This document shows, piece by piece, positions 1 to 57,687 of a stretch of DNA of 64,000 bases. Both the position numbers and the translations under genes were made by a program. How positions within the stretch are numbered: position 1 is the stretch's first letter; every line of letters begins with the position of its first letter. The DNA comes from Escherichia coli (GTDB taxonomy: Bacteria > Pseudomonadota > Gammaproteobacteria > Enterobacterales > Enterobacteriaceae), in the NCBI RefSeq assembly GCF_003790525.1, contig NZ_CP033635.1; one strand, 5' to 3'. Under the pieces are notes generated by a model, which saw nothing but the letters and a program-made list of their open reading frames with translations, ran no database searches and was not told the origin of the DNA.

Positions 1-391
1 TCTTGCCGACAGCGTCCCCGACCGCCAGTTGCTGGCACCGGTAAACAGTATTTCCCGCTATAAAACCATCGAATGGCTGAATTACATCGCCACCGAGCTG
101 CATAAAGGCTTCACACCTCTGTTTCGCCCTGATACACCGGAAGAGTACAAACCAACAGTTCGCGCGCAGCTGGAGAAGAAGCTGCAATATGTGAACGATG
201 CTCTGAAGGATGAGCACTGGATCTGCGGGCAACGATTTACAATTGCTGATGCCTATCTGTTTACGGTTCTGCGCTGGGCATACGCGGTGAAACTGAATCT
301 GGAAGGGTTAGAGCACATTGCGGCATTTATGCAACGTATGGCTGAACGTCCGGAAGTACAAGACGCGCTGTCAGCGGAAGGCTTAAAGTAA
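1..391 (+). CDS. gst: glutathione S-transferase, C-terminal part (5-prime end outside window)
   Basis: ORF 29..391 is open to the window edge; translation ends ...[16 protein letters not shown], recognised as E. coli Gst C-terminus; stop TAA 389..391. Confidence 0.85.
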
Positions 392-398
392 TAGCCAT

Positions 399-422
399 CG
401 GCCCACAGGTCGTTGTGGGCCG
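399..422. terminator. stem-loop between convergent gst and pdxY
   Basis: inverted repeat cggcccaca / tgtgggccg with 6-nt loop; no strong T-tract. Confidence 0.4.
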
Positions 423-434
423 AAATGAGATATT

Positions 435-3416: not shown

Positions 3417-3474
3417 GGTTTTCTTTACGGATTGTCAGTGGGTGACGCTATTGTGCGCCGCCCCTGGAAAAATC

Positions 3475-3804
3475 TCAACGCTGTGGATTTTGTAACTGAC
3501 AGTTATTCAAGACGATGCGGTCGCGTTTATAGACAGTCGCTTCCTCGCCTTTCGACCAGAAAACATAGATCCCGTCGGTGTAACGTGCACCAGACGCAGA
3601 AATGCCCTGTTTGAGATGCAATAGTTGATTATCATAAACAAAACTGACTTCCTGGCGCGGATTATTCAGTTTGACCGTCAACGGTTTTTCATCACACTGG
3701 TATTCCAGCGTATCGGTTTGCATGCGCTCAACCAGTTGATTGAACACGCTACAGCCGGTGAGAAGGACCGGCAAACAGATCAGTAACAGTTTTTTCATAG
3801 ACAT
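3475..3804 (-). CDS. mliC: membrane-bound lysozyme inhibitor of C-type lysozyme (lipoprotein)
   Basis: 109 aa ORF with lipoprotein signal and lipobox LLTGC; recognised as MliC (YdhA). Confidence 0.9.
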
Positions 3805-5798: not shown

Positions 5799-6233
5799 TC
5801 ACCCTTTGGCCTGTAACTCAATGATATTATGCTCAAGTTTTGCGATGAGCTTAATCAGTTGTTCCAGTTCCTCTGCGGAGATGCCATGTAAAATTTCCGC
5901 GCGGGTTTTGTTAATAACAGCTTCCATTTCGCTGATCAGTGGCTCTGCCTTTTCCGTCAGTTTAATACGTTTAGCCCGACGATCGCTGGCACAAGTTTGA
6001 CGCGAAATTAACCCTTTTTCTTCCAGTTGGTCCAGAGTACGGACCAGTGATGGCTGCTCGATGCCAATCGCTTTTGCCAGTTGAATTTGCGACTGGTCTG
6101 GAGGTAACTGATGGATATTGTGTAACGTAACCCAATGGGTTTGTGTTAACTCCAGCGGTTTCAGGCGATGGTCTATCAGAGCACGCCATATGCGCACCAA
6201 CCGTGCCAGATCAGAACCTAGTGGCGATTCCAA
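5799..6233 (-). CDS. slyA: MarR-family transcriptional regulator SlyA
   Basis: ORF 5799..6239 (146 aa from ATG); the 144-aa form I recall for K-12 SlyA ([12 protein letters not shown]...) would start at in-frame TTG 6233. Confidence 0.88.
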
Positions 6234-6433: not shown

Positions 6434-6670
6434 GTGAAGTTTATGCTCAATGCAACAGGATTGCCCTTACAAGATCTGGTGTTCGGTGCGTCCGTCTACT
6501 TTCCTCCGTTTTTCAAAGCCTTCGCGTTTGGATTCGTCATCTGGCTTGTCGTACACCGCCTGCTTCGTGGCTGGATCTACGCTGGTGACATCTGGCATCC
6601 CTTGTTAATGGATTTATCGCTGTTTGCGATTTGCGTTTGCCTTGCCCTGGCAATACTGATTGCGTGGTAA
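6434..6670 (+). CDS. ydhI: small inner-membrane protein (DUF1656), partner of YdhJK
   Basis: 78 aa ORF from GTG 6434 ([25 protein letters not shown]...), two hydrophobic segments; recognised as YdhI. Confidence 0.85.
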
Positions 6671-6672
6671 CT

Positions 6673-7530
6673 ATGTCAATTAAAACAATTAAGTATTTCT
6701 CAACAATCATTGTAGCGGTAGTTGCGGTTCTTGCCGGATGGTGGCTGTGGAATTATTACATGCAATCTCCGTGGACACGCGACGGGAAAATACGCGCAGA
6801 ACAGGTTTCTATCACCCCTCAGGTGTCGGGACGTATTGTTGAGCTGAATATAAAAGACAACCAGCTGGTTAACGCGGGGGATCTTCTGCTCACGATCGAT
6901 AAAACGCCCTTTAAGATCGCCGAGCTGAACGCACAGGCTCAGCTGGCGAAAGCGCAATCTGACCTCGCAAAAGCCAATAACGAAGCGAATCGTCGTCGTC
7001 ATCTCTCACAAAATTTTATTTCTGCCGAAGAACTCGATACCGCTAACCTCAATGTTAAAGCGATGCAGGCCAGTGTTGATGCCGCACAGGCGACGCTGAA
7101 ACAGGCACAATGGCAACTGGCGCAAACGGAAATTCGCGCCCCGGTGAGTGGATGGGTGACTAACCTCACTACCCGCATCGGCGATTACGCTGACACAGGG
7201 AAACCGCTGTTTGCCCTTGTCGACAGCCACTCGTTTTACGTCATTGGTTATTTTGAAGAAACCAAGTTGCGCCATATCCGCGAAGGTGCACCAGCACAAA
7301 TTACCCTCTATAGTGATAACAAAACGTTACAGGGTCACGTTTCCAGTATCGGTCGGGCGATTTATGATCAGAGCGTTGAAAGTGACTCAAGCCTTATTCC
7401 GGATGTGAAACCTAACGTCCCCTGGGTTCGACTCGCCCAACGCGTTCCCGTCCGCTTTGCGCTGGATAAAGTCCCAGGCGATGTCACGCTGGTGTCGGGC
7501 ACCACCTGTAGCATTGCCGTAGGTCAATAA
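6673..7530 (+). CDS. ydhJ: HlyD/AaeA-like membrane fusion protein
   Basis: ORF 6631..7530; start placed at ATG 6673 ([18 protein letters not shown]...), 285 aa; N-terminal TM then coiled coil. Confidence 0.85.
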
Positions 7531-22696: not shown

Positions 22697-22861
22697 GCCT
22701 TATCTCCACCTCTTCGCGTCATTACGCGGTATTCATTAAAGTGGCGAAAGCATGACAGCAATCACAAAAAAATGAAAATAACAAAAAGAGAAAACACTTT
22801 TGCCATTTTGCTAACAAACAGGAAGGAGATGCGAGGGAGAACGCGCTCCCTCGAGAGGAAA

Positions 22862-22951
22862 TCAGTGCAGCGCGGCAGTCAAACCCACGGCCACGATCAA
22901 ACCGAGGACGATAATCGTTGTTACCAGTGAAAATTTAAGGTCGGTGCTCAT
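22862..22951 (-). CDS. ynhF: 29-aa small membrane protein
   Basis: ATG 22951 with AAGGAG RBS 7 nt upstream; translation MSTDLKFSLVTTIIVLGLIVAVGLTAALH, stop TGA 22862..22864; below the ORF-track size cut-off; matches the YnhF I recall; hairpin 22832..22853 follows. Confidence 0.7.
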   Translation of the reverse strand: MSTDLKFSLVTTIIVLGLIVAVGLTAALH

Positions 22952-23189
22952 CAAGTTTTCTCCTTTTTTATTACCACACAAAAAGTGATATTACGCATTT
23001 TTACACACTGTGATGAAAAAATCTCCCGTCATTTATAATGATAAGTGTTTTTACCACTTCCCCTTTTCGTCAAGATCGGCCAAAATTCCACGCTTACACT
23101 ATTTGCGTACTGGCCATTGACCCCTTCCTGACGCTCCGTGTCGTTTTTCCGGCGTACCGCAACACTTTTGTTGTGCGTAAGGTGTGTAA

Positions 23190-23205
23190 AGGCAAACGTT
23201 TACCT
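23190..23205. promoter_or_regulatory. PurR operator O1 (AGGCAAACGTTTACCT)
   Basis: 16-bp match to pur-box core GCAAACGTTT, 45 bp upstream of purR ATG. Confidence 0.6.
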
Positions 23206-23249
23206 TGCGATTTTGCAGGAGCTGAAGTTAGGGTCTGGAGTGAAATGGA

Positions 23250-31840: not shown

Positions 31841-31917
31841 GCGTTCATAGCTCAGTTGGTTAGAGCACCACCTTGACATGGTGGGGGTCGTTGGTTCGAG
31901 TCCAATTGAACGCACCA
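31841..31917 (+). tRNA. valV: tRNA-Val (anticodon GAC)
   Basis: 77-nt cloverleaf: GCGTTCATAGCTCAGTTGGTTAGAGC D-arm, anticodon loop CTTGACAT, GGTTCGAGTCC T-arm, encoded CCA. Confidence 0.95.
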
Positions 31918-31921
31918 TCCT

Positions 31922-31998
31922 GCGTCCGTAGCTCAGTTGGTTAGAGCACCACCTTGACATGGTGGGGGTCGGTGGTTCGAGTCCACTCGGACGCACCA
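31922..31998 (+). tRNA. valW: tRNA-Val (anticodon GAC)
   Basis: second 77-nt copy 4 nt after the first (GCGTCCGTAGCTCAGTTGGTTAGAGC...ACGCACCA); weak hairpin plus T-run follows at about 31995..32030. Confidence 0.95.
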
Positions 31999-32106
31999 GA
32001 TTTTCTTAATCTGGTCTTCTCCTTTTTTCCCTCTGTTTCTTCTCTGTATCCAATACGTTAAAAGATTTACACTGTCTTCGTATGCGTTATCAGTAGGAGA
32101 ATCGCT

Positions 32107-32412
32107 ATGGCAACTTTGTTACAACTTCATTTTTCTTTCAATGGCCCATTTGGCGACGCAATGGCTGAGCAGCTTAAACCTCTTGCTGAGTCGATTAATC
32201 AGGAACCTGGTTTTCTGTGGAAGGTATGGACAGAAAGTGAAAAGAACCACGAAGCCGGTGGGATCTACCTTTTTACTGATGAAAAAAGCGCCCTTGCCTA
32301 TCTGGAAAAACATACTGCCCGACTGAAAAATCTCGGCGTTGAGGAAGTTGTCGCCAAAGTTTTCGATGTCAATGAGCCACTGAGTCAAATCAATCAGGCA
32401 AAACTCGCCTGA
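32107..32412 (+). CDS. ydhR: putative monooxygenase, small ABM-like protein
   Basis: 101 aa [32 protein letters not shown]... recognised as YdhR. Confidence 0.88.
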
Positions 32413-50079: not shown

Positions 50080-50110
50080 CCCTTAAGTCTGTGCGACACA
50101 GGCTTAAGGG
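50080..50110 (-). terminator. long hairpin with minus-strand U-tract; possible 3-prime end of sRNA RydB or other minus-strand transcript
   Basis: cccttaag(tctgtg-cga-cacagg)cttaaggg; on the minus strand the stem is followed by TTTTCTTATTTCT. Confidence 0.45.
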
Positions 50111-50335
50111 TTTCTACCCCATCCGGCGCTTATCTCCGGCACTCTCAGTGGCTTAGCTCTTGAAGGGGCGATAAGAATAATCTCATAAAGCTAACCCGCC
50201 GTTTTAACACAAACTGCGATTAGTATTATTTTTGAACAATATCAGGCGGGTAGATAAGCAGTATTAAGAAGGCCATCGAACCTGGACGGAGATTAATCCA
50301 GGTCGATATGGCGAACTTGCGGCATTAAGTCAGGA

Positions 50336-50623: not shown

Positions 50624-51034
50624 TCACAAAATGGCGGTCGTCAATCGTGACGAACAGCACAAACGCCCTTTCTCATCGAAGATTTCAATCTGCCAGACCT
50701 GGTGACGCGAACCGAGATGCAACGGTTTGCATACGCCGCGCACCCGCCCTTCTCGTGCCGAGCGGACGTGGTTAGCATTGATTTCCAGACCAACCACCTT
50801 TTGCTCACCTTCGGTACATAAATAACCGGCAACGGAACCGATACTTTCGGCCAGCACCACAGACGCGCCTCCATGCAGCAACCCGAAAGGCTGCTTTGTC
50901 CGGGAGTCTACTGGCATTGTCGCTTCAAGGGTGTCATCACCAATATGTTCAAAGCGAATATCCAGCAACCCCACCATGTTTCCTTCACCCATAGCATTCA
51001 ATGCTTCCAGGGTGATTTTTCGTTTCCATATCAT
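50624..51034 (-). CDS. menI: hotdog-fold thioesterase (1,4-dihydroxy-2-naphthoyl-CoA hydrolase)
   Basis: 136 aa ORF MIWKRKITLEALNAMGEGNMVGLLDIRFEHIGDD...; start overlaps ydiJ stop (ATGA). Confidence 0.9.
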   Translation of the reverse strand: MIWKRKITLEALNAMGEGNMVGLLDIRFEHIGDDTLEATMPVDSRTKQPFGLLHGGASVVLAESIGSVAGYLCTEGEQKVVGLEINANHVRSAREGRVRGVCKPLHLGSRHQVWQIEIFDEKGRLCCSSRLTTAIL

Positions 51035-54000
51035 TTAATAATCTCCAGTAAAGCCTGCACAGGATGGCGTACCCCCGTGCCTTCGACCCGTTTTACCTGG
51101 CTACGGCAGGAATATCCGGTCGCCAGACAGCGATTACGCGGCAGTCGCTGCATCGCCTGATGCCAGGATAACTCATAGATCCCGAGCGAATTTTTATGGT
51201 TTTTCGCTTCATGTCCGTAAGTCCCTGCCATGCCGCAGCAACCCACGCTGACATTTTCCAGTTTCGCGCCAAAACGGGCAAATATCGCGGCCCATTGTGC
51301 TGGCGCGCCCGGCAAAGCGGTAACTTCGGTACAGTGACCAAAGAAATACCATGATTCACCGCTGACTGTAGCCACTGGCTGTGAGTCAAGTGCGCTTGCC
51401 AGCCATTCATTCGCCAGTAAGACGTTAAACTCGCCACGTTCATCGCCCAGCGCCAGTTTATATTCATCGCGATAACAAAGTACCAGCGCCGGATCGACGC
51501 CCACCATTGGCATCCCCAGCTTCGCCATACGGTTGAGGAAATCCGCCGTCTTTTTCGCCGTCTTCGCAAAACGATTAAGAAAGCCTTTGATATGCTGGGC
51601 TTTGCCATTTGGCGAAAATGGCAGTAACACAGGCTGGAAACCTAATTTTTCAACCAGACGGACAAAATCCGCCACCACTTGCGCATCGTAATAGCTGGTA
51701 AAGGGGTCCTGCACCACCAACACCGTGCGCGCTTTCTGCTCTGTATTGAGAGCTTCAAGCTGTTCCAGCGTCATATTCGCCGAGCGATGCCCCACCATTT
51801 GTTGTTGTAGCGAGGGGACTGACAGCAGTGGCAAATCAACCATGCCGATATGTTTTTCCGAGAGTTTGCGCACCAGCGGCTGGTTAATGAAGAAGTTAAA
51901 GGTTTTCGGCGCGCGTGCCATCAGCGGTGCGTAGCTCTCGACCGTAGCAACGAGGTGGTCACGAAGCGGGCGTAAATAACGGGTGTGATAGAGCTGCAGA
52001 AAACGAGAACGAAACTCCGGCACATCAATTTTGATGGGGCACTGGGTCGAACACGCTTTACAGGCCAGACAGCCCGACATAGCCTCTTTGACTTCGTGTG
52101 AGAAGTCGTATTCGCCTTTATTCGCATGCCAGCTATTGCGCGTGCGGGCAATTAACGTCCGTAAACTGACGCCGGATTCAGGCAGTTCTTGTTCCAGTTT
52201 GAGTGGGTCAACGCCGCGATCCGCCAACAAGCGCAGCCATTCACGCACCAGCGTTGCGCGCCCTTTCGGTGAATGAATCCGGTTCTGGGTGATCTTCATC
52301 GACGGACACATCGGACTACGGGCATCAAAGTTGAAGCATAAACCGTTGCCGTTACACTCCATCGCACCGCGCCACTGCTGGCGTACCGCAATGGGGATCT
52401 GCCGATCAAATGTACCGCGCTTCACCGCGTCCACTTTCATCATCGGCGCATCGAGACCTTCTGGCGGGCAAATCTTCCCTGGGTTGAGTCGGTTATGCGG
52501 GTCAAATGCCGCTTTCACTTTGCGCAGTTCTGCAAAAAGTTCCTCACCGAAAAACGCCGGGCTGTATTCAGCGCGAAAACCTTTGCCGTGCTCGCCCCAC
52601 AACAAACCACCGTATTTCGCAGTCAGCGCCACCACGTCATCAGAGATTTGCTTCATCAAAATCTCTTGTTGTGGATCGCACATATCCAGTGCCGGACGGA
52701 CGTGCAAGACACCTGCGTCGACGTGACCGAACATACCGTAGCTTAAGCCGTGGCTGTCGAGCAGCGCGCGAAATTCAGCAATATAATCGGCCAGATGTTC
52801 CGGCGGTACGCAGGTATCCTCAGCAAACGGAATTGGCTTAGCGGCACCTTTGGCATTGCCAAGCAGACCAACGGCTTTTTTGCGCATCGCATAGATACGT
52901 TCAACGCCCGCCAGTTCGCGGCACACCTGCCAGCCAATCACACCTGCCTGTTGGCTGGCAATCAGCTCATCAAGCCGCACACAGAGTGCATTAACTCGCT
53001 CGTCAATCAGCGCCTCATCATCACCAGCAAATTCCACAATGTTCAGCCCGAGCATTTCTTTGTCAGGTACATCGGTAATCAACTCGCTGACGGAATGCCA
53101 GACAATATCTTCCCGCGCCAGATTCAGCACTTTTGAGTCCACCGTCTCTACCGAAAGCGCCCGCGCCTCAACCATAAACGGCGCGTTACGCAGCGCGGAG
53201 TCAAAAGAGTCATATTTGACGTTCACCAGACGCCGCACTTTAGGCAAGCGCGTAATATCCAGCCGCGCTTCGGTAATAAAGGCCAGCGTCCCTTCTGAAC
53301 CCGTCAGAATGCGCGTCAGATCGAACTCGGTCATCTCATCGTTAAAGACATGACGCAGATCGTAACCGGTAAGAAAGCGGTTAAGTTTGGGGAAGTTGTT
53401 GATGATTAACTGGCGTTGCTGACGGCAACGTTGATAAACCGTGTTATAAATTCGCCCGATTGTGGTATTGGATTTACCCAGCGTTTCCGCCAGTTCGACG
53501 GGTAAAGGTTGCGTATCGAGAATATCGCCCCCCAACAACACCGCGCGTACGCCAAGTACGTGATCTGACGTTTTGCCATAGACCAGCGATCCCTGACCGG
53601 ATGCATCGGTATTGATCATCCCGCCGAGCGTTGCCCGGTTGCTGGTCGAAAGCTCCGGCGCAAAAAAGTAGCCGAACGGTTTCAGGTACTGATTGAGTTG
53701 GTCTTTTATCACCCCGGCCTCAACGCGCACCCAGCCCTCTGCAGGGTTAATTTCGATGATGCGGTTCATATGGCGGGACATATCAACAATAATCCCCTGG
53801 TTGAGCGCCTGACCGTTAGTGCCGGTGCCGCCGCCGCGGGGGGTAAAGATCAACGATGAATAGCGTTCCTGCGCGGCAAGACGGGCGATCAGCGCTACAT
53901 CTGCGGTTGAACGCGGAAATACCACCGCATCGGGGAGAAGTTGGTAAATACTGTTGTCGGTCGACATTGTCAGACGATCGGCATAACTTGTCGCCGTATC

Positions 54001-54087
54001 GCCAGTAAAACCCTGTTGCTCCAGCTCTTGCAAAAAATTAAGCACCAATTGAACGACGCCAGGTGCCTGGGAAATCTGTGGAATCAT
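51031..54087 (-). CDS. ydiJ: large FAD-linked oxidase / Fe-S fusion protein (putative D-2-hydroxyglutarate dehydrogenase)
   Basis: ORF 51031..54159; start placed at ATG 54087 (MIPQISQAPGVVQLVLNFLQELEQQGF...), 1018 aa. Confidence 0.9.
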   Translation of the reverse strand: MIPQISQAPGVVQLVLNFLQELEQQGFTGDTATSYADRLTMSTDNSIYQLLPDAVVFPRSTADVALIARLAAQERYSSLIFTPRGGGTGTNGQALNQGIIVDMSRHMNRIIEINPAEGWVRVEAGVIKDQLNQYLKPFGYFFAPELSTSNRATLGGMINTDASGQGSLVYGKTSDHVLGVRAVLLGGDILDTQPLPVELAETLGKSNTTIGRIYNTVYQRCRQQRQLIINNFPKLNRFLTGYDLRHVFNDEMTEFDLTRILTGSEGTLAFITEARLDITRLPKVRRLVNVKYDSFDSALRNAPFMVEARALSVETVDSKVLNLAREDIVWHSVSELITDVPDKEMLGLNIVEFAGDDEALIDERVNALCVRLDELIASQQAGVIGWQVCRELAGVERIYAMRKKAVGLLGNAKGAAKPIPFAEDTCVPPEHLADYIAEFRALLDSHGLSYGMFGHVDAGVLHVRPALDMCDPQQEILMKQISDDVVALTAKYGGLLWGEHGKGFRAEYSPAFFGEELFAELRKVKAAFDPHNRLNPGKICPPEGLDAPMMKVDAVKRGTFDRQIPIAVRQQWRGAMECNGNGLCFNFDARSPMCPSMKITQNRIHSPKGRATLVREWLRLLADRGVDPLKLEQELPESGVSLRTLIARTRNSWHANKGEYDFSHEVKEAMSGCLACKACSTQCPIKIDVPEFRSRFLQLYHTRYLRPLRDHLVATVESYAPLMARAPKTFNFFINQPLVRKLSEKHIGMVDLPLLSVPSLQQQMVGHRSANMTLEQLEALNTEQKARTVLVVQDPFTSYYDAQVVADFVRLVEKLGFQPVLLPFSPNGKAQHIKGFLNRFAKTAKKTADFLNRMAKLGMPMVGVDPALVLCYRDEYKLALGDERGEFNVLLANEWLASALDSQPVATVSGESWYFFGHCTEVTALPGAPAQWAAIFARFGAKLENVSVGCCGMAGTYGHEAKNHKNSLGIYELSWHQAMQRLPRNRCLATGYSCRSQVKRVEGTGVRHPVQALLEIIK

Positions 54088-54475: not shown

Positions 54476-55588
54476 ATGGTAAATGTTCGTCAGCCCAGGG
54501 ATGTCGCACAAATTCTGCTTTCGGTGCTCTTTTTAGCCATCATGATTGTGGCATGTCTGTGGATTGTACAACCCTTTATTCTCGGCTTTGCATGGGCTGG
54601 TACGGTGGTTATCGCCACCTGGCCGGTATTGTTACGTTTGCAAAAGTTCATGTTTGGTCGCCGCTCTCTCGCCGTTCTGGTGATGACGCTGTTATTAGTG
54701 ATGGTGTTTATCATCCCTATTGCCTTGCTGGTTAACAGTATCGTCGACGGCAGCGGCCCGCTAATTAAAGCCATTTCCAGCGGTGACATGACGTTACCCG
54801 ATCTGGCGTGGCTTAATACCATTCCGGTGATTGGCGCGAAGCTATATGCAGGCTGGCACAACTTGCTGGATATGGGGGGGACGGCGATCATGGCAAAAGT
54901 CCGTCCTTATATTGGCACCACCACCACCTGGTTCGTTGGGCAGGCGGCGCATATCGGGCGCTTTATGGTGCATTGTGCGCTGATGCTTCTCTTCAGCGCC
55001 CTGCTGTACTGGCGCGGTGAACAGGTGGCACAAGGCATTCGCCATTTTGCAACCCGTCTGGCAGGCGTTCGTGGAGATGCCGCCGTGCTGCTGGCGGCAC
55101 AGGCTATCCGCGCGGTGGCGCTGGGTGTTGTGGTGACAGCGTTAGTACAGGCAGTGCTTGGCGGTATCGGCCTCGCCGTATCCGGCGTACCTTATGCAAC
55201 TTTGCTCACGGTGTTAATGATCCTCTCCTGCCTTGTCCAGCTTGGACCGTTGCCGGTACTGATTCCGGCGATTATCTGGCTCTACTGGACTGGCGATACC
55301 ACCTGGGGAACGGTATTGTTAGTGTGGAGCGGTGTGGTTGGCACGCTGGATAACGTCATCCGCCCAATGTTAATTCGCATGGGTGCCGATTTACCGCTGA
55401 TCCTGATTCTCTCTGGCGTTATTGGTGGTTTGATTGCTTTCGGGATGATCGGCCTGTTTATTGGTCCGGTTCTGTTAGCCGTTTCCTGGCGTCTTTTTGC
55501 CGCGTGGGTGGAAGAAGTCCCACCGCCGACGGACCAACCGGAAGAAATTCTCGAAGAACTTGGCGAAATCGAGAAATCGAATAAGTAA
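54476..55588 (+). CDS. ydiK: AI-2E (PerM/YdiK) family membrane transporter
   Basis: 370 aa polytopic membrane ORF MVNVRQPRDVAQILLSVLFLAIMIVACLWIV... Confidence 0.9.
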   Translation: MVNVRQPRDVAQILLSVLFLAIMIVACLWIVQPFILGFAWAGTVVIATWPVLLRLQKFMFGRRSLAVLVMTLLLVMVFIIPIALLVNSIVDGSGPLIKAISSGDMTLPDLAWLNTIPVIGAKLYAGWHNLLDMGGTAIMAKVRPYIGTTTTWFVGQAAHIGRFMVHCALMLLFSALLYWRGEQVAQGIRHFATRLAGVRGDAAVLLAAQAIRAVALGVVVTALVQAVLGGIGLAVSGVPYATLLTVLMILSCLVQLGPLPVLIPAIIWLYWTGDTTWGTVLLVWSGVVGTLDNVIRPMLIRMGADLPLILILSGVIGGLIAFGMIGLFIGPVLLAVSWRLFAAWVEEVPPPTDQPEEILEELGEIEKSNK

Positions 55589-55594
55589 TTTCTC

Positions 55595-55617
55595 ATCAGG
55601 CGGCTCTGCCGCCTGAT
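55595..55617 (+). terminator. hairpin after ydiK
   Basis: stem atcaggcgg / ccgcctgat with 5-nt loop, 7 nt after ydiK stop; weak T-tract. Confidence 0.45.
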
Positions 55618-55774
55618 TGTTAACCCCTGCTAATTGATATTTGCTTGCTCTTCCCCATATTTTCCTGCTTACCGCCATTCAGCTGGTAGTACCTGTCGCA
55701 AATTCTTTACAGTTTTTAAACTAATGAGACGAATCTGATCGACGCAAAAAGTCCGTATGCCTACTATTAGCTCA

Positions 55775-55880
55775 CGGTTATAAATCAACATATTGATTTA
55801 TAAGCATGGAAATCCCCTGAGTGAAACAACGAATTGCTGTGTGTAGTCTTTGCCCATCTCCCACGATGGGCTTTTTTTTA
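55775..55880 (+). ncRNA. rprA: RprA small regulatory RNA
   Basis: ACGGTTATAAATCAACATATTGATTTATAAGCATGGAAATCCCCTGAGTGAAACAACGAATTGCTGTGTGTAGTCTTTGCCCATCTCCCACGATGGGC + T8 matches the RprA sequence I recall. Confidence 0.9.
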
Positions 55881-56016
55881 ACATTTTTCCGCTTCGCCAC
55901 CTCGCCCCTCACGCTTTCCAATAATGTTGCACAAGATACTGTGACTCTCTTCAAGCCGTCAGCAGGCTGATAATGTTATTTATATTTTATTGTTTATTTC
56001 ATGCAGCCATTACACG

Positions 56017-56373
56017 ATGAACGCTTATGAACTCCAGGCACTTCGCCATATTTTTGCCATGACTATTGATGAATGCGCGACCTGGATTGCCCAGACCGGT
56101 GACAGTGAAAGCTGGCGTCAGTGGGAAAATGGCAAATGCGCCATTCCTGATTGTGTAGTCGAGCAACTGTTGGCTATGCGTCAGCAACGAAAAAAACATC
56201 TTCATGCCATCATAGAGAAAATAAATAACCGCATCGGCAACAACACCATGCGTTTTTTCCCCGACTTAACCGCGTTTCAACAAGTCTACCCTGATGGCAA
56301 TTTTATTGACTGGAAGATCTATCAATCGGTAGCCGCTGAATTATATGCACACGATCTGGAGCGGCTTTGTTAA
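56017..56373 (+). CDS. ydiL: uncharacterised DUF1870 protein
   Basis: ORF 55990..56373; start placed at ATG 56017 (MNAYELQALRHIFAMTIDECATWIAQTGDS...), 118 aa. Confidence 0.85.
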   Translation: MNAYELQALRHIFAMTIDECATWIAQTGDSESWRQWENGKCAIPDCVVEQLLAMRQQRKKHLHAIIEKINNRIGNNTMRFFPDLTAFQQVYPDGNFIDWKIYQSVAAELYAHDLERLC

Positions 56374-56472: not shown

Positions 56473-57687
56473 ATGAAAAATCCCTATTACCCTACCGCAC
56501 TGGGGTTGTATTTTAATTATCTGGTGCATGGTATGGGCGTCATTTTGATGAGCCTGAATATGGCCTCGCTGGAGACGCTTTGGCAGACTAATGCCGCGGG
56601 CGTCTCGATAGTTATCTCATCACTGGGCATTGGTCGATTAAGTGTCTTGCTTTTTGCAGGATTATTATCCGATCGCTTTGGTCGCCGCCCTTTTATCATG
56701 CTCGGGATGTGCTGCTATATGGCCTTCTTTTTTGGCATCCTGCACACCAATAACATCATTATCGCTTATGTTTTTGGCTTTCTGGCGGGAATGGCAAACA
56801 GTTTTCTCGATGCAGGCACCTATCCCAGTTTGATGGAAGCTTTTCCACGCTCACCGGGTACAGCCAATATTTTAATTAAAGCATTTGTTTCCAGCGGACA
56901 ATTTTTATTACCGCTAATTATCAGCCTGTTAGTGTGGGCTGAACTGTGGTTCGGTTGGTCCTTTATGATTGCCGCAGGCATTATGTTTATTAACGCTCTG
57001 TTTTTATACCGTTGTACGTTCCCACCCCATCCGGGTCGTCGCTTACCTGTCATAAAGAAAACCACCAGCTCTACGGAACATCGCTGTTCAATTATCGATT
57101 TAGCCAGTTATACCTTATATGGCTATATCTCAATGGCAACGTTTTATCTGGTTAGCCAGTGGCTGGCACAATACGGACAATTTGTTGCAGGCATGTCATA
57201 CACTATGTCGATCAAACTACTCAGTATCTACACCGTGGGTTCGCTGCTTTGTGTATTTATTACCGCTCCACTCATTCGTAATACCGTTCGCCCAACAACA
57301 TTACTGATGCTGTACACCTTTATCTCATTTATCGCCCTGCTCACCGTCTGCCTGCATCCCACATTTTATGTGGTGATAATATTTGCTTTCGTCATCGGTT
57401 TTACCTCCGCAGGCGGTGTTGTACAAATTGGCCTGACGTTAATGGCGGAACGTTTTCCCTACGCTAAAGGAAAAGCAACGGGGATCTATTACAGTGCGGG
57501 CAGCATTGCAACATTTACCATTCCGTTGATTACGGCTCATCTTTCGCAAAGAAGTATTGCCGATATTATGTGGTTCGATACCGCCATCGCTGCCATCGGC
57601 TTTATACTGGCACTGTTTATTGGCTTACGCAGTCGCAAAGAAACGCGGCATCACTCGCTAAAGGAAAATGTCGCTCCGGGTGGGTAA
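56473..57687 (+). CDS. ydiM: MFS transporter
   Basis: 404 aa 12-TM ORF MKNPYYPTALGLYFNYLVHGMGVILMSLNMASLETLWQ...; paralog of downstream ydiN. Confidence 0.9.
   Translation: MKNPYYPTALGLYFNYLVHGMGVILMSLNMASLETLWQTNAAGVSIVISSLGIGRLSVLLFAGLLSDRFGRRPFIMLGMCCYMAFFFGILHTNNIIIAYVFGFLAGMANSFLDAGTYPSLMEAFPRSPGTANILIKAFVSSGQFLLPLIISLLVWAELWFGWSFMIAAGIMFINALFLYRCTFPPHPGRRLPVIKKTTSSTEHRCSIIDLASYTLYGYISMATFYLVSQWLAQYGQFVAGMSYTMSIKLLSIYTVGSLLCVFITAPLIRNTVRPTTLLMLYTFISFIALLTVCLHPTFYVVIIFAFVIGFTSAGGVVQIGLTLMAERFPYAKGKATGIYYSAGSIATFTIPLITAHLSQRSIADIMWFDTAIAAIGFILALFIGLRSRKETRHHSLKENVAPGG

Follow-up and report, generated by a model that had tools for sequence, protein, structure and literature searches.

Positions 55774-55879 on the plus strand of the window (the whole 64,000-nt stretch of Escherichia coli DNA analyzed here) are almost certainly the rprA gene of the E. 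coli chromosome. The product is RprA, a 106-nt, Hfq-dependent small RNA (sRNA) that is RcsB-dependent, activates rpoS, and represses further targets. The ydiK-ydiL interval holds an intact rprA that is identical to the K-12 gene, together with an intact Rcs-responsive promoter. Because both the gene and its promoter are K-12-identical, no strain-specific change is expected in this control node of envelope stress, RpoS, and biofilm formation. The rprA of the window is already known, and nothing novel is open for the window itself. The only item that might merit separate work lies outside the window, where a copy of the RprA 3' module is carried by phages and phage-plasmids.

Identity and genomic setting of rprA

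The Rfam covariance model of RprA (RF00034) matches window positions 55774-55881 (+). The match is untruncated, covers model positions 1-108 of 108, and scores 118.5 bits against a gathering score (GA) of 70, with an E-value of 1.6e-16. Positions 55774-55879 are identical at 106 of 106 bases to the annotated rprA of K-12 MG1655 (b4431, NC_000913.3 1770372-1770477). In RefSeq records that are 100% identical to the window, these bases carry the annotation rprA and lie between ydiK and ydiL.

A preliminary description of this locus had reported an intact RprA in the ydiK-ydiL interval, called it expected rather than novel, and named an Rfam covariance scan as the check. The scan score clears the gathering threshold, the K-12 identity extends through the gene and the promoter, and the RefSeq annotation of window-identical records gives the same location, so this is the canonical, already known gene. 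The interval given at that time, 55775-55880, had the correct length and was shifted by +1 nt, losing the 5' A and gaining an A after the U-tract. The boundaries reported here lie one base further to the left.

Compared with RprA of the RF00034 family and K-12 b4431, the window copy has the same 106-nt sequence, the same promoter with its RcsB site, the same three-stem-loop architecture, the same U8 terminator, and the same position between ydiK and ydiL. There is no difference inside the gene or the promoter. Every base from 55629 to 55897, a span that includes the RcsB site, the -10 element, the gene, and the terminator, matches K-12. The ydiK-ydiL interval carries only four substitutions relative to K-12 MG1655, located at 55626, 55628, 55898, and 55913. 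All four are outside rprA, its RcsB site and promoter, and its terminator.

The gene order ydiJ, ydiK, rprA, ydiL, ydiM is the same as in K-12. In the RefSeq annotation mapped onto the window, ydiJ is at 51031-54087 (-) and ydiM is at 56473-57687 (+). The upstream neighbor, ydiK, is a 370-aa open reading frame (ORF) at 54476-55588 (+) that is annotated in an identical RefSeq record as an AI-2E family transporter. The downstream neighbor, ydiL, encodes a YdiL/DUF1870 family protein and is placed at 56017-56373 (+) by the annotation of the identical record and of K-12. In the list of ORFs, the ydiL frame starts from an upstream TTG.

The locus is nearly universal in E. coli. It is found in 5,424 of 5,426 complete genomes, and the 106-nt RprA is at least 99% identical in 5,421 E. 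coli records. Many RefSeq E. coli chromosomes match the 901 bases surrounding rprA at 100% identity.

A perfect 10-bp inverted repeat, ATCAGGCGGC-TCT-GCCGCCTGAT, is present at 55595-55617 (+), 7 nt past the ydiK stop codon. The repeat is without a U-tract and is not called by the terminator scan. It may be a structure of the ydiK 3' end that insulates rprA from ydiK read-through.

Klebsiella has a different downstream neighbor, with rprA located between ydiK and ppsA and no ydiL (K. pneumoniae NZ_CP079158.1, a record labelled plasmid). The ydiK-rprA-ppsA order indicates that the linkage to ydiK is the conserved part of the synteny. The Klebsiella "plasmid" matches were considered as mobile copies of rprA and rejected, as they are the ordinary ydiJ-ydiK-rprA-ppsA region. 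Several "plasmid" records in PLSDB hold this chromosomal block, and some of them are multi-megabase in size. The multi-megabase records are mislabelled chromosomes or large chromosomal inserts.

Other RNA families also have matches in the window. STnc550 (RF02081) has a full-length match at 22859-23249 (-) with 396.1 bits (GA 48). The known enterobacterial sRNA rydB (RF00118) has a full-length match at 50109-50169 (-) with 81.6 bits (GA 50). Two tandem tRNA-Val(GAC) genes are located at 31841-31917 and 31922-31998 (+). Opposite the second of these, the Helicobacter "antisense" family HPnc0260 matches 31960-32123 (-) with 106.6 bits. The best-aligned part of this match is the complement of the tRNA, so it is probably an artefact of family composition and not a real antisense RNA gene.

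Promoter and RNA structure

The rprA promoter contains an RcsB binding site. RcsB has been co-crystallised with a 21-bp fragment of the Salmonella rprA promoter, CTATTGAGACGAATCTGATCG, stated to span -53 to -33 (PMC7913699). The fragment matches the window once, at 55721-55741 (+), with one mismatch; zero such matches are expected by chance, and none were found in shuffled sequence. If +1 is the A at 55774, the site falls at exactly -53 to -33, which provides independent support for the start site. The core RcsB box, TGAGACGAATCTGA, is within the matched site at 55725-55738 (+), or -49 to -36. A putative -10 hexamer, TACTAT, was read from the sequence at 55762-55767 (+), which is -12 to -7 from 55774. 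At the -10 position, CTACTATTA is kept in most Enterobacteriaceae homologues.

A generic sigma-70 scan finds no -35/-10 pair directly upstream of 55774. Transcription of rprA is strictly RcsB-dependent (PMC6298664); CpxAR is a further inducer, and LrhA is a repressor (PMC5861431). The absence of a generic sigma-70 call is what is expected of an activator-dependent promoter.

The result of the promoter scan could be taken to mean that the RprA-like sequence of the window is a decayed relic or a chance resemblance and no longer works as a gene, and the sequence alone is silent on expression. This reading is very improbable. The copy is identical at all 106 positions to an experimentally characterised gene, its promoter region is that of K-12 including the RcsB site, and the failed scan is accounted for by activator dependence. 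The covariance-model E-value and the near-universal conservation in E. coli also argue against decay. The window sequence is thus read as an intact rprA, which is presumably expressed and used in the source strain as it is in K-12.

Rcs control extends well beyond E. coli. Of 116 homologous loci, 104 have a motif resembling the RcsB box in the 200 nt upstream of the RprA core, mostly at the distance observed in the window. The background at the same loci is 0.002 per 200 nt, an enrichment of several hundred-fold for a pattern that was written after the data had been seen. The motif (e.g., TAAGAGGATTCTTA and TAGGATGATTCTTA) is kept even in genera with an unalignable RprA 5' domain, such as Yersinia, Providencia, Photorhabdus, and Xenorhabdus.

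RprA is described as folding into three stem-loops; RNase E cleaves within a loop and thereby yields a shorter form (PMC6202311). The single-sequence fold of the window copy has an energy of -25.8 kcal/mol (z = -2.88), and none of 200 dinucleotide shuffles folds as well. In both the minimum-free-energy and the centroid fold, nt 5-30 (55778-55803, +) form a 5' stem-loop with an A/U-rich stem of 11 bp and a CAUA loop. The 5' stem-loop exceeds the other two in size and is a duplex-recognition element for RNase E (PMC6202311).

The two end structures are conserved across species. RNAalifold, run on 75 alignable homologues, did not predict the 5' hairpin, and the hairpin was then tested by naming it. 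In these homologues, 83-87% of the cells of the 5' hairpin are paired, and two-sided changes are observed at 6 of its 11 pairs. The 5' hairpin and the terminator together have 90.0% of cells paired, against at most 47.6% in slid controls, a comparison that favors a named structure derived from one aligned sequence over its slid versions. The invariance of a stem at nt 60-74 was discarded as evidence, as the homologues were retrieved with a 22-mer that includes this stem.

The intrinsic terminator was called by the terminator scan at 55852-55879 (+). It is composed of a 7-bp stem (GCCCAUC/GAUGGGC) with a 6-nt loop, spanning 55852-55871, followed by a run of eight T residues (U8 in the RNA) at 55872-55879. 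The preliminary description had RprA end in a GC hairpin plus U8, and both are in place: the hairpin string CCCATCTCCCACGATGGG is at 55853-55870 and is unique in the 64-kb window. Over 113 homologues, 99.2% of terminator cells are paired, with two-sided compensatory changes at 3 pairs, e.g., C-G to U-A in 16 sequences. An intrinsic terminator with a long U-tract is the Hfq-binding 3' end typical of the sRNA class to which RprA belongs.

The mechanical list of ORFs includes a 49-aa frame with a GTG start at 55821-55970 (+) that overlaps the 3' half of rprA. A small protein encoded instead of, or besides, a noncoding RNA is hardly credible. The frame crosses the intrinsic terminator and its U8 and would therefore not lie on the RprA transcript, and it is unannotated in the RefSeq records of the locus. 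Moreover, conservation across species follows the rules of RNA structure (compensatory stems and an invariant unpaired core) and not those of codons. The locus is best described as encoding the RprA sRNA.

Target pairing and proposed action

The central single-stranded region of RprA, nt 33-62 (55806-55835, +), is predicted to pair with the rpoS leader on the basis of a duplex search and published sites. The search confined RprA to the unpaired linker, nt 33-78, and used the K-12 leader, since the window does not contain rpoS. The best duplex joins nt 33-62 to rpoS -118 to -93 at -22.2 kcal/mol, and 15 of 200 shuffles do as well. It includes the perfect 8-mer AACGAAUU. In 5,250 E. coli records, the rpoS leader segment taken for the search is conserved to 99% or more.

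Two less constrained searches did not recover the site at nt 33-62. Unrestricted RNAduplex joined RprA to the leader end to end with huge loops at -50.6 kcal/mol; 32 of 200 shuffles equaled this value, and the search was discarded as the wrong test. A windowed 32x32 search chose the terminator stem against rpoS -32 to -3, where 21 of 100 shuffles were equal, and this stem is not free to pair. The linker duplex can be regarded as a plausible predicted site that is not significant by energy alone. The basis of the proposed mechanism is the K-12 sequence of the window gene combined with published genetics, and the RprA-rpoS pairing published for K-12 should apply to the window copy by sequence identity.

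Published targets of RprA include both activated and repressed mRNAs. The rpoS mRNA, and ricI in Salmonella, are activated through disruption of self-inhibitory structures in the mRNA leader (PMC5861431, PMC6202311). Repressed targets include csgD and ydaM/dgcM (PMC3465796, PMC4152358), hdeD (PMC5861431), and narP (PMC9262595). The anti-csgD sites are at RprA nt 28-45 (site II) and nt 60-97, and ydaM/dgcM pairs through nt 45-75 (PMC3465796). The central region at nt 33-62 overlaps anti-csgD site II and the ydaM-pairing region.

The preliminary description called RprA an RpoS-activating sRNA, which is correct and incomplete. Knockouts of rprA barely alter RpoS levels, and csgD responds at lower doses of RprA (PMC4152358). 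The effect on RpoS is published as weak and the control of csgD and ydaM/dgcM as stronger. Given the barely changed RpoS levels in the knockouts, "RpoS activator" overstates the physiological role.

RprA shares its mode of action on rpoS with DsrA and ArcZ. All three are trans-acting, Hfq-dependent sRNAs with an intrinsic terminator, and all follow an anti-antisense logic on the rpoS leader hairpin (PMC4152358, PMC3937726). Their sequences are unrelated, and the input of RprA is Rcs envelope stress, whereas DsrA and ArcZ respond to other signals. RprA differs further in that it also represses csgD and ydaM and in that a weak effect on RpoS is ascribed to it (PMC4152358).

The proposed action of the window gene is as follows. 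Transcription would begin at the A at 55774 from an RcsB-dependent envelope-stress promoter. RcsB would occupy the box at -49 to -36, substituting for a good -35 element, and transcription would end at the GC hairpin and U8. The resulting RNA would consist of the 5' A/U-rich stem-loop, the central single-stranded region, and a 3' module made up of an invariant core and the terminator. Cleavage by RNase E would set the 3' module free as a processed RNA of 47 nt. The central region is predicted to pair with the upstream arm of the self-inhibitory rpoS leader hairpin (approximately -118 to -93), which would free the ribosome-binding site and permit RpoS translation. The central and 3' regions would pair with the csgD, ydaM/dgcM, hdeD, and narP mRNAs, leading to their repression. 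Published experiments supply the dependence on RcsB and Hfq, the processing, and the regulatory outcomes; the identity, boundaries, and synteny of the gene, its intact promoter site, its structural conservation, and its complementarity to rpoS were observed here.

The 3' module in Enterobacterales and on mobile elements

The 3' module is made up of nt 60-106 (55833-55879, +) and corresponds to the processed form, RprAproc. This form has been described as the "last 47 nts" of RprA (PMC9262595) and as RprA60-105 (PMC3465796). The module includes an invariant core, ATTGCTGTGTGTAGTCTTTGCC, at nt 60-81 (55833-55854). The published processed 5' end, nt 60, is also the start of this order-wide invariant core.

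Homologues were collected by scanning the 22-mer of nt 60-81 over a collection with one genome per species, which gave at least 120 loci. Across Enterobacterales, at least 120 species-representative genomes thus contain an exact match to the core. Among the loci listed are genera of Enterobacteriaceae, Erwiniaceae, Pectobacteriaceae, Yersiniaceae, Hafniaceae, Morganellaceae, and Budviciaceae type. In these loci, fetched with the 22-mer itself, the core and the terminator are near-invariant across the order. The 5' two-thirds of RprA is unalignable outside Enterobacteriaceae, Erwiniaceae, and Pectobacteriaceae. Judged from these alignments, what is conserved in RprA appears to be Rcs control and the 3' module, and what varies appears to be the rpoS-pairing 5' and central region. 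The cross-species data restate the known picture with fresh numbers.

A second type of element carries the RprA 3' module outside the window. Its members join RprA nt ~55-98 to a 5' domain that is GC-rich and has two hairpins, and they are found on temperate phages and phage-plasmids. The E. coli CH468 copy is on plasmid unnamed5 (NZ_JBRBPZ010000006.1; 5930-6050 of the extracted locus), an 89-kb P1-type phage-plasmid, where it is intergenic and unannotated. The temperate Escherichia phages LLS, Eeyore, and Flotzy also carry the element, at 3456-3592 of the extracted locus in LLS and at ~3465-3600 in Eeyore. Two extracted loci (L087 and L107) have it at 295-430 (-) and 6570-6705 (-), respectively. 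Two Enterobacter plasmids (NZ_CP074151.1 and NZ_CP085744.1) carry the element at 100% identity. It is also found on extra contigs of Enterobacter wuhouensis and of a Citrobacter MAG, both of which have a normal rprA as well.

The phage-type element and RprA have in common the core AUUGCUGUGUGUAGUCUUUGCCC and the design of the terminator stem, and this shared part matches the processed 47-nt RprA. They differ in the 5' domain, which is GC-rich and forms two hairpins in the phage-type element, in the absence of ydiK synteny, and in the Rfam score. The element ends in a terminator and scores 40.8 bits with the Rfam RprA model, below the GA of 70; no other family matched it in the Rfam scan. Its fold is no better than that of shuffled sequences (z = -1.40). 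Among the titles listed by a literature search on RprA and prophage-encoded sRNAs, none described the element.

As elements with RprA nt ~55-98 do exist, the window copy could be imagined to be one of them, as in phage LLS or the CH468 phage-plasmid, instead of chromosomal rprA; this is refuted by the ydiK/ydiL synteny and the canonical A/U-rich 5' domain of the window copy, with further evidence from its RcsB box, its score of 118.5 bits against only 40.8 for the phage copy with its different GC-rich 5' domain, and the absence of flanking phage genes. The window copy is chromosomal rprA, and the phage-type copies are a separate subject.

One tentative idea, to which we give a low probability, is that the RprA 3' module (nt 60-106) is a portable regulatory module carried by temperate phages and phage-plasmids behind a 5' domain of their own. 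If this were true, lysogens or plasmid carriers could produce an RNA that mimics processed RprA and taps into, or competes with, the RprA/Hfq regulon of the host. Alternatively, the phage-type copies may be debris left by recombination or remnants of att sites. The element is located ~375-470 nt downstream of a CI-like repressor gene in LLS and Eeyore, with both on one strand, and its distance from xis/int in LLS is ~3.3 kb. An attP explanation was considered for the phage copies; it fits the Phytobacter case described next and does not fit LLS and Eeyore, given the position beside the CI-like repressor and ~3.3 kb from xis/int.

Phytobacter massiliensis (NZ_HE578945.1) has a full rprA at ~1410120 and a partial 3' copy at ~1418220, 8 kb apart and on the same strand. 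In the extracted loci, the full gene is at 814-921 and the partial copy, which begins at ~nt 37, is at ~1213-1284. A lambda-type phage tape-measure gene (PF09718) and an HTH_35 gene are located between the two copies. The pair looks like the trace of a prophage, now a remnant, that inserted into rprA at its 3' end, with an att duplication.
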